Source of the DNA: Escherichia coli
GTDB lineage: Bacteria > Pseudomonadota > Gammaproteobacteria > Enterobacterales > Enterobacteriaceae
DNA length: 1,005 nucleotides
Assembly: GCF_003334335.1 (NCBI RefSeq)
Contig: NZ_QOWQ01000131.1
Reading direction: 5' to 3' (one strand)
Shown here: positions 1 through 1,005 of the stretch, piece after piece
Layout of the letters: each line of letters starts with the position of its first letter
Numbering within the stretch: the stretch's first letter is position 1
Position numbers and translations under genes: made by a program
The notes under the pieces: generated by a model
Told to the model about the DNA's origin: nothing
Database searches by the model: none
Seen by the model: only the letters and a program-made list of their open reading frames with translations

Positions 1-1005
1 GGATACGTCGCTTTTGCCCCCGTGATATCTGTCAGCGTCAGCGTATCTGCTGTAAAGCCATCATTTGTCCACATCACAAGGTCAAACGCCGTCTGCTCTG
101 TACCATCAATCACCGGAACGACTCTTTCGCTGTTATTTCCCGCAAAGCGGAAAACAACCGTATGCCAGTTATGGTCAAACGCACCAAATGTACCCAGTTG
201 TGCATTCGACGTGCCCTTGTGGTGCATAAGATTCAGATTTGATGCATCCGTCTGAAGGAAGAATGATGCCAGCATACTGTTTGCTGCCGCGCCTGACGCC
301 CACTGCGACACCGGCCAGTAGAGACCAAAGACAAACTGTCCGTTCACCAGTTCGCTTCCATCCGGAATTTTGAACCGTACGGCAATTTCACCCCCCTTGC
401 TGAGAAGATTTTTTGCCTCCTCCACTGCAACAGTACGGAACATTTTCCAGGACGTCAGTTTACCGGGCTGTTTTTCCAGTCGCAGCGCTTTCCGTCCACC
501 GTCATCAGTCACAGTGCCTTTGCCACCGGCAGCCCCCCACTGCTGCTCTGTCCATACACCATTTCCACTGTTCGCATCATATTCAGCCACCGTCCTGGTA
601 CTGCTCACGGCCTCATCATGACCAGTACCAGCAACACCGCCATCCTGCGGTTTCTCAACACCCGGTACCCCCGGACTGACATCATCACCGGGAGTTGTAC
701 CACCCGACTGCGGTGCGCTCTGCCCGGTAAGGAACGATAATGTCCGCCCGGCGTACTGCAAAACGGCACCTGCCAGGCGGTCTGAAACAAGGCCTCTTCG
801 CGCCCATGAACTGAAGTGCGTTTTACGATCGGCTGACGTCCAGTTACTGGCAGTGCGTGACGCAGCGCCATAGTATCCCGCCGGGATAATGTCCGGATCT
901 TCTGACGGCTCGTTTGTCGGCACATTCACACCATGCTCATCCGTCATCAACGGCACAAAGTGAATATTCTGCGCAGCTTTGCCTTTATACCCACCGTAAA
1001 CCGCC
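1..1005 (-). CDS. Internal fragment of a large protein, partial at both ends; putative extracellular receptor- or carbohydrate-binding protein (phage tail fibre-like or adhesin-like) with a C-terminal LamG/ConA-like lectin-fold domain. Function is putative.
   Basis: Minus-strand frame with codons at plus 1004->3 is stop-free for 334 codons: I checked every plus-strand triplet starting at a multiple of 3 and found no TTA, CTA or TCA. Every other frame is broken by stops. Translation N->C begins AVYGGYKGKAAQNIHFVPLMTDEHGVNVPTNEPSEDPDIIPAGYYGAASRTASNWTSADRKTHFSSWARRGLVSDRLAGAVLQYAGRTLSFLTGQSAPQSGGTTPGDDVSPGVPGVEKPQDGGVAGTGHDEAVSSTR... and ends ...GAFDHNWHTVVFRFAGNNSERVVPVIDGTEQTAFDLVMWTNDGFTADTLTLTDITGAKATY. 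Composition (Gly/Thr/Ala/Ser/Val-rich, 9 Trp, 0 Cys) is protein-like. Confidence refers to this being real coding sequence; the functional label is much weaker (about 0.3-0.4). Confidence 0.9.
3..590 (-). other. Predicted LamG / concanavalin-A-like lectin (jellyroll) domain; C-terminal part of the fragment, continuing beyond the plus-strand 5' edge of the window
   Basis: Motif pattern recognised by eye, in N->C order: GEIAVRFKIPDGSELVNGQFVFGLYWP (beta-strand region with conserved aromatic), then a Gly-rich loop, then FDHNWHTVVFRFAGNNSERVVPVIDG (plus 102..179). The W-H-hydrophobic run followed about 12 residues later by hydrophobic-x-(D/N)-G is the characteristic core of LamG-like jellyroll domains (Pfam Laminin_G_3-type pattern). 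No profile search was run. Confidence 0.5.
597..731 (-). other. Low-complexity Gly/Pro/Thr/Asp-rich interdomain linker (protein level)
   Basis: Translation LTGQSAPQSGGTTPGDDVSPGVPGVEKPQDGGVAGTGHDEAVSST has no hydrophobic core residues and is rich in G, P, T, S, D, typical of a flexible hinge. On the plus strand this appears as a C-rich antisense stretch. Confidence 0.5.
732..1004 (-). other. N-terminal segment of the fragment; unassigned fold, probably the C-terminal end of an upstream domain
   Basis: Translation AVYGGYKGKAAQNIHFVPLMTDEHGVNVPTNEPSEDPDIIPAGYYGAASRTASNWTSADRKTHFSSWARRGLVSDRLAGAVLQYAGRTLSF has mixed composition and looks globular. I recognise no motif in it. Confidence 0.3.

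Follow-up and report, generated by a model that had tools for sequence, protein, structure and literature searches.

A 1,005-nt stretch of Escherichia coli DNA, hereafter the window (contig NZ_QOWQ01000131.1 of assembly GCF_003334335.1), is almost certainly an internal piece of nanS-p, a late-operon gene of lambdoid E. coli phages and prophages whose product is a three-domain 9-O-acetyl-sialate esterase. nanS-p is an accessory gene of lambdoid and Shiga toxin (Stx) prophages and enables E. coli to use the O-acetylated sialic acids of mucus as nutrients. All 1,005 bases of the window are 100.0% identical to the chromosome of E. coli NCTC9112 (NZ_LR134079, 3361735-3362739) and to Escherichia phage PhiR5_1 (PV340545). 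Both records contain an annotated minus-strand coding sequence (CDS) of 1,989 nt and 662 amino acids, located at 9946..11934 in locus coordinates that place the window at 10001-11005; its RefSeq product in NZ_LR134079 is WP_126502619.1, "SASA family carbohydrate esterase". The ATG of this CDS lies 930 nt, or 310 codons, before window position 1004, and the open frame in the window is therefore exactly codons 311-644. A GGGAGG Shine-Dalgarno sequence is positioned 6 nt ahead of the ATG, and a TAA stop codon is present beyond the left edge of the window, at a distance of 55 nt.

The minus-strand frame with codons running from position 1004 to position 3 (window 3-1004) contains 334 codons and 0 stops, as an earlier note made from the letters of the window had claimed; the remaining five frames contain 6, 9, 9, 21 and 12 stops. 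From the base composition of the minus strand, the probability of a stop is 0.046 per codon and the chance that the frame is open over 334 codons is 1.4e-7, which agrees with the figure of about 1 in 10 million given in that note. The same arithmetic makes the plus-strand frames less stop-prone (~0.035 per codon, ~8e-6 per frame). For any of the six frames to be open by chance the figure is ~2.5e-5, and mononucleotide shuffles gave 1/20,000. The frame is open far beyond chance expectation.

Comparison with homologues indicates that the open frame is also the coding frame. The homologous frame is the sole open frame in PhiR5_1, PhiR12_1, 933W (L0105) and phage 434, in which the other frames have 5-22 stops each; the lowest protein identity to the window allele among these four is 55%. 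Outside the interdomain linker described below, differences from the 85%-identical allele of PhiR12_1 fall 19, 14 and 52 times at codon positions 1, 2 and 3, respectively, and the codon changes are 47 synonymous versus 26 non-synonymous. The third-position excess of substitutions and the conservation of the frame support the minus-strand frame as the probable coding frame. Together with the annotated CDS, which is in the same frame, they uphold the earlier assertion that this is the true one.

The list of open reading frames (ORFs) that accompanied the window contains only short ORFs (at most 106 amino acids), all in other frames, just as the earlier note had observed. nanS-p is absent from it because the list takes only ORFs that are complete within the window, ORFs running off either end of the source being left out, and the gene crosses both edges. 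The gene had been predicted to exceed 1 kb and to extend past both edges, and the 1,989-nt CDS does so by 55 nt on the left and 929 nt on the right. A further prediction, that any annotation assembled from complete ORFs would miss the gene, holds for a track limited to the window but not for public annotation, where nanS-p is already annotated. Two of the checks proposed at the time have given clear answers: extension into the 100%-identical records located the start, the Shine-Dalgarno sequence and the stop, and protein searches returned strong Pfam and PDB matches together with hundreds of phage homologues. Neither an in-frame stop nor an immediate closure of the frame without a start or homologues was found. 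The lesson on method is that complete-ORF tracks miss genes longer than the window, and that open frames reaching an edge need to be reported.

The domain architecture of the full protein was established by profile and structure-database searches. Pfam matches are to DUF1737 (PF08410) at residues 3-50 (E=2.3e-15), SASA at residues 81-276 (E=4.2e-9), and DUF6645 (PF20350) at residues 511-619 (E=1.6e-32); the translation of the window matches DUF6645 only (E=4.8e-33). Using phmmer against the PDB, residues 74-394 match NanS (YjhS, 3PT5; E=1.6e-114), and residues 448-656 match residues 4-217 of the 218-residue 'NanS-p' chain in 6YP6 (E=3.8e-48). PHROG 143 matches the protein end to end, and the PHROG families found, all designated 'unknown function', were uninformative. 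DUF1737 and the catalytic residue Ser87 are encoded outside the window, and 197 of the ~215 residues of the C-terminal domain are encoded within it. The features are listed here in window coordinates, all on the minus strand.

-54..1934, minus strand: nanS-p, whole gene, from the annotated CDS 9946..11934 in PV340545 and NZ_LR134079.
3..1004, minus strand: nanS-p codons 311-644 of 662, stop-free and in frame with the annotated CDS.
753..1004, minus strand: C-terminal 84 residues (311-394) of the predicted NanS-like SGNH/SASA esterase domain, from the phmmer match to 3PT5.
816..818, minus strand: codon CAC (gtg on the plus strand) of His373, the counterpart of NanS His301, from the alignment with 3PT5.
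594..752, minus strand: interdomain linker 2, 53 residues (395-447), rich in Gly, Thr, Ser and Pro, delimited by low identity, indels and low predicted local distance difference test (pLDDT) scores.
3..593, minus strand: predicted C-terminal lectin-like jelly-roll domain, residues 448-644 of 448-662, from phmmer and Foldseek matches to 6YP6.
78..404, minus strand: Pfam DUF6645 match (PF20350), the core of the C-terminal domain, residues 511-619.
54..335, minus strand: four aromatic residues of a proposed sugar-binding site, F534 (333-335), Y539 (318-320), F559 (258-260) and F627 (54-56), from the alignment with 933W L0105.

An RNA element in the window was also considered and rejected; the single Rfam match, 29 nt long, scored 20.5 bits (E=0.57), below the cut-off of 32.

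The esterase active site can be traced by alignment to E. coli NanS, which has catalytic Ser19 and His301, with Gln18 in the oxyanion hole and without the Asp of a triad (PMC9063846). The GQSN motif at residues 85-88 of the window allele contains Ser87, which is aligned with NanS Ser19 (chain residue 30 of 3PT5). His373, within KTHFSS, is paired with chain residue 312 of 3PT5 (SSHFSS), corresponding to NanS His301; the numbering of 3PT5 carries an 11-residue tag offset, which was fixed from the position of Ser19 as chain residue 30 in GQSN. Ser87 and His373 are both invariant in the four-allele alignment. On the basis of homology and these conserved catalytic residues, we assign a putative esterase chemistry to the window allele with high confidence. 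All tested NanS-p proteins of EDL933 and O104:H4 are active esterases that allow growth on 5-N-acetyl-9-O-acetylneuraminic acid (Neu5,9Ac2) and de-O-acetylate mucin glycans (PMC8065619).

To describe the C-terminal domain, an AlphaFold model built from a 4-sequence alignment was used (mean pLDDT 48.6, predicted template modeling score 0.37); it is usable in the C-terminal domain only. There the model is all-beta, with block-mean pLDDT values mostly of 70-89 from residue 471 and a few blocks at 54-68. The first Foldseek match in the PDB is 6YP6, with a template modeling (TM) score of 0.87, a root-mean-square deviation (rmsd) of 2.4 Å and 44% identity. The second, 3PT5 (rmsd 7.3), adds nothing to the sequence match for the esterase domain. 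Outside the family, the closest structure is a sialic-acid-binding lectin domain, that of Vibrio cholerae sialidase (2W68; TM 0.76, rmsd 3.8, E=6.7e-10), and further matches are to calreticulin and legume-type lectins and to Akkermansia sialidase entries. The predicted fold fits a glycan-binding, possibly sialoglycan-binding, role, as judged by fold resemblance on a moderate-confidence model. Residues Y510, Y515, Y540 and F611 have been proposed to bind sugar in vb_24B_21, the NanS-p protein of phage phi24B (PMC10462455). These positions were mapped through 933W L0105, which was assumed to share the numbering of vb_24B_21, both proteins being 645 amino acids long. The aromatic character of the proposed site is kept in the window allele (F/Y/F/F), and two tyrosine hydroxyls are gone. 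The homologue in phage 434 has F, Y, F and L where phi24B has Y, Y, Y and F, such that three of the four residues differ.

The linker between the esterase and C-terminal domains is the most divergent part of the window. Relative to PhiR12_1, it has 49% amino acid identity with indels, as against 97% for DUF1737, 89% for the esterase domain and 93% for the C-terminal domain. At the DNA level, identity to PhiR12_1 drops to ~0.55 at window positions 601-750 and is 88-100% on both sides. Codon changes within the linker are 28 non-synonymous versus 9 synonymous. The segment is predicted to be disordered, with pLDDT below 50 over residues 396-444. The segment is a sharp divergence hotspot, a pattern that may reflect either weaker constraint or recombination with breakpoints between the domain modules. 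In phi24B gp84 (vb_24B_21), the corresponding linker is cut after release, and the C-terminal domain is thereby lost (bioRxiv 10.64898/2026.04.10.717836). Inspection of the sequence of both linkers of the window allele revealed none of the SSP-containing motifs that have been proposed as cleavage sites for phi24B.

In PhiR5_1, nanS-p is situated in a late region of lambdoid type, between the genes for antiterminator Q and holin S. Downstream are, in order, genes for DUF1378, DUF826, holin S, lysozyme R and Rz, followed by terminase and lambda-type head genes. PhiR5_1 and the NCTC9112 prophage both have the head genes Nu1, A, W, B and Nu3; the NCTC9112 annotation also includes a head decoration protein. 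The late-region slot was confirmed by the annotated neighbors in PV340545, NZ_LR134079, PV340549 and NZ_CP145707. Upstream of nanS-p, NCTC9112 carries genes for a DNA methyltransferase, tRNA-Ile/Arg/Arg, TerB and DUF3927, and PhiR5_1 carries Q and two small hypothetical genes. The stretch from Q and the late promoter to nanS-p is wholly different in the two records (12427-14538 in NCTC9112 versus 12518-13311 in PhiR5_1), and the stretch just upstream of nanS-p is a mosaic junction. Neither of the 100%-identical records contains stx genes. A consensus-only scan located several terminator-like hairpins on the sense strand between Q and nanS-p, which are consistent with a predicted Q-antiterminated late transcript. 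For characterized alleles, nanS-p expression rises upon prophage induction, along with that of the late genes (PMC10462455, PMC8065619). On the other side of the gene, the TAA is immediately followed by a GC-rich hairpin (gccgccagcgg...ctggcggagg) within positions 9880-9950 of the PhiR5_1 locus. The terminator scan also picked out this stem on the plus strand, opposite to the gene, where it has a T-run (9920-9932). It may act as a terminator, either bidirectional or antisense, located between nanS-p and the gene for DUF1378.

Copies of the window with at least 80% identity are present in 36 of 5,426 complete E. coli genomes, all of them chromosomal; no match to the window was found among the plasmids of PLSDB. 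The number of matching places per genome has a median of 2 and a maximum of 6, with 5 on the NCTC9112 chromosome. Multiple places per genome fit the multiple nanS-p paralogues that have been reported, seven in EDL933 and five in O104:H4. RefSeq naming of 99.8%-identical copies varies between 'SASA family carbohydrate esterase' and 'DUF6645 domain-containing protein'. That the second name might mark a biological difference was rejected, one copy so named and checked (2946-4934) having the same 1,989-nt length.

Extrapolating from characterized homologues, the window allele would act as follows. nanS-p would be transcribed with the late genes upon prophage induction, and the esterase would then strip 9-O-acetyl groups from Neu5,9Ac2 and from O-acetylated sialoglycans of mucin. 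Deacetylation would allow the E. coli population to use the sialic acid. The C-terminal domain, nearly all of which is encoded by the window, would bind glycan and bring the enzyme to its substrate, and the flexible linker would let proteolysis shed the lectin domain. In phi24B, the NanS-p protein is also held on the capsid via DUF1737 (bioRxiv 10.64898/2026.04.10.717836). One may go further and envision that the window allele is displayed via DUF1737 on the virion of a siphovirus with lambda-type head genes, that its lectin recognizes a different O-acetylated glycan, and that the linker is a self-cleaving tether that frees the phage from mucus. We regard this extended scheme as improbable; if it were true, the groups of C-terminal alleles would distinguish specificities for different niches or host glycans.

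Several observations weigh against identifying the window allele as a NanS-p esterase of the characterized kind. No NCBIfam family model matched the protein, identity to the characterized 933W/phi24B type is ~46% over the window, and the overall structure model is poor (mean pLDDT 48.6). SGNH block IV of the window allele is RKTH, which differs from the RSSH and RASH of the characterized type; the block IV variants reported for NanS-p proteins of Stx2a phages are RSSH, RASH or RPTH (PMC10462455). We infer the presumed esterase activity of the window allele from its homologues, the alleles of EDL933 and O104:H4. Phe replaces the tyrosine of phi24B at two of the four proposed binding positions, and specificity could therefore differ. 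Moreover, a carbohydrate-binding role of the C-terminal domain has only been proposed, with 'no experimental evidence' even for the reference protein (PMC8065619).

A different emphasis would make the protein mainly a structural component of the virion, in which DUF1737 decorates the capsid, the lectin tethers the phage to mucus or to a bacterial glycan, and the metabolism of the lysogen is secondary. In its favor is evidence from phi24B, where cryo-electron microscopy and proteomics revealed gp84 bound to the capsid as a DUF1737 hexamer, full-length in fresh virions and with the C-terminal domain cut off later (bioRxiv 10.64898/2026.04.10.717836). The window allele likewise has DUF1737 and a disordered linker, and its gene is located in the late region beside the lysis and head genes. 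However, in phi24B the protein is bound solely to the hexons that are flat and central in a T=9 podovirus capsid (bioRxiv 10.64898/2026.04.10.717836), whereas the head genes of PhiR5_1 and of the NCTC9112 prophage are of the lambda type. In addition, the loop that bears the Tyr42 'tooth' is three residues shorter in the window allele, and its two linkers lack the SSP-containing motifs. A structural role in the virion would also add to the enzymatic explanation and not replace it. We consider it unlikely that the virion is the main site of function.

Two other explanations question the gene itself. Many E. coli prophages are defective, and the nearby YdfR and DUF551 genes are pseudogenes in the NCTC9112 annotation, so the frame might conceivably be a decayed remnant in a cryptic prophage that is open by chance or through recent divergence. 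This is very hard to reconcile with a gene that is intact, with a start, ribosome-binding site and stop, and with invariant catalytic residues. PhiR5_1, whose record is that of a complete phage genome (host, E. coli C), has the identical sequence. Each of the 36 matching complete genomes (36/36) has a single place that covers 80% or more of the window, and all three records inspected contain the full-length gene. Changes relative to the 85%-identical allele are, furthermore, mostly synonymous in both folded domains. We judge decay to be extremely improbable. The probability is smaller still, and practically negligible, that an overlapping second gene is functional, the candidates being a 106-amino acid ORF at 605-925 (minus strand) and an 88-amino acid ORF at 413-679 (plus strand), both of which stand in the mechanical ORF list. 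This reading was rejected: codon 66 of the 106-amino acid ORF is a stop in PhiR12_1, and in all four homologues every alternative frame is closed, with 5-22 stops each. ORFs of such length are expected in the antisense frames of a gene with 54% G+C. Taken together, we conclude that the window almost certainly encodes part of a NanS-p protein.

The closest characterized relatives are the NanS-p proteins of Stx phages, 933W L0105 (z1466) and phi24B vb_24B_21 (gp84), which have the same architecture of DUF1737, SASA esterase and jelly-roll DUF6645; additional N- and C-terminal domains on either side of the esterase domain are described for NanS-p in PMC10462455. Their catalytic Ser and His are shared with the window allele, and 6YP6 was matched over its whole chain. 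933W L0105 likewise lies between Q and the lysis cassette, just after stx2AB, whereas the window locus is without an upstream stx operon. Identity between the 933W protein and the window allele is 58% over the full length and ~46% over the window. The linker of the window allele is longer than that of the Stx-phage proteins and unrelated in sequence, its block IV is RKTH, and Phe replaces Y510 and Y540 of phi24B. The DUF1737 loop that holds the Tyr42 'tooth' of phi24B gp84 (TAGYGAEF) is three residues shorter in the window allele (TP---YTLM; PhiR5_1 11800-11934), and phi24B is a podovirus, whereas the head genes of the carrier phage are lambda-type. The classical lambdoid phage 434 encodes a 616-amino acid homologue (1610-3460), 55% identical to the window allele, in a region of non-homology to 434B; its N-terminus aligns with DUF1737.

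NanS (YjhS, 3PT5) shares the SGNH type II esterase domain, with GQSN and the His kept and the triad Asp missing in both proteins. In contrast to the window allele, NanS is a single-domain protein without DUF1737, linker or lectin domain, and ~250 of the 334 window codons are without a NanS counterpart. In V. cholerae sialidase, too, the lectin domain (2W68) is a non-catalytic module on a sialic-acid-processing enzyme; it has 13% sequence identity to the window allele's C-terminal domain, and the relationship is one of fold resemblance on a moderate-confidence model and not of membership. Matches were obtained in 347 phage records, 339 of them below 60% identity, and the concentration of NanS-p diversity in the C-terminal region has already been described (PMC10462455). 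By its architecture, catalytic residues and genomic slot, each of which agrees with the characterized proteins, the predicted product of the window gene is a member of the NanS-p family. nanS-p is already known and annotated in RefSeq and GenBank, and the finding is correct but ordinary: the window copy adds just one more case to the allele diversity already known for the linker and the C-terminal lectin domain.

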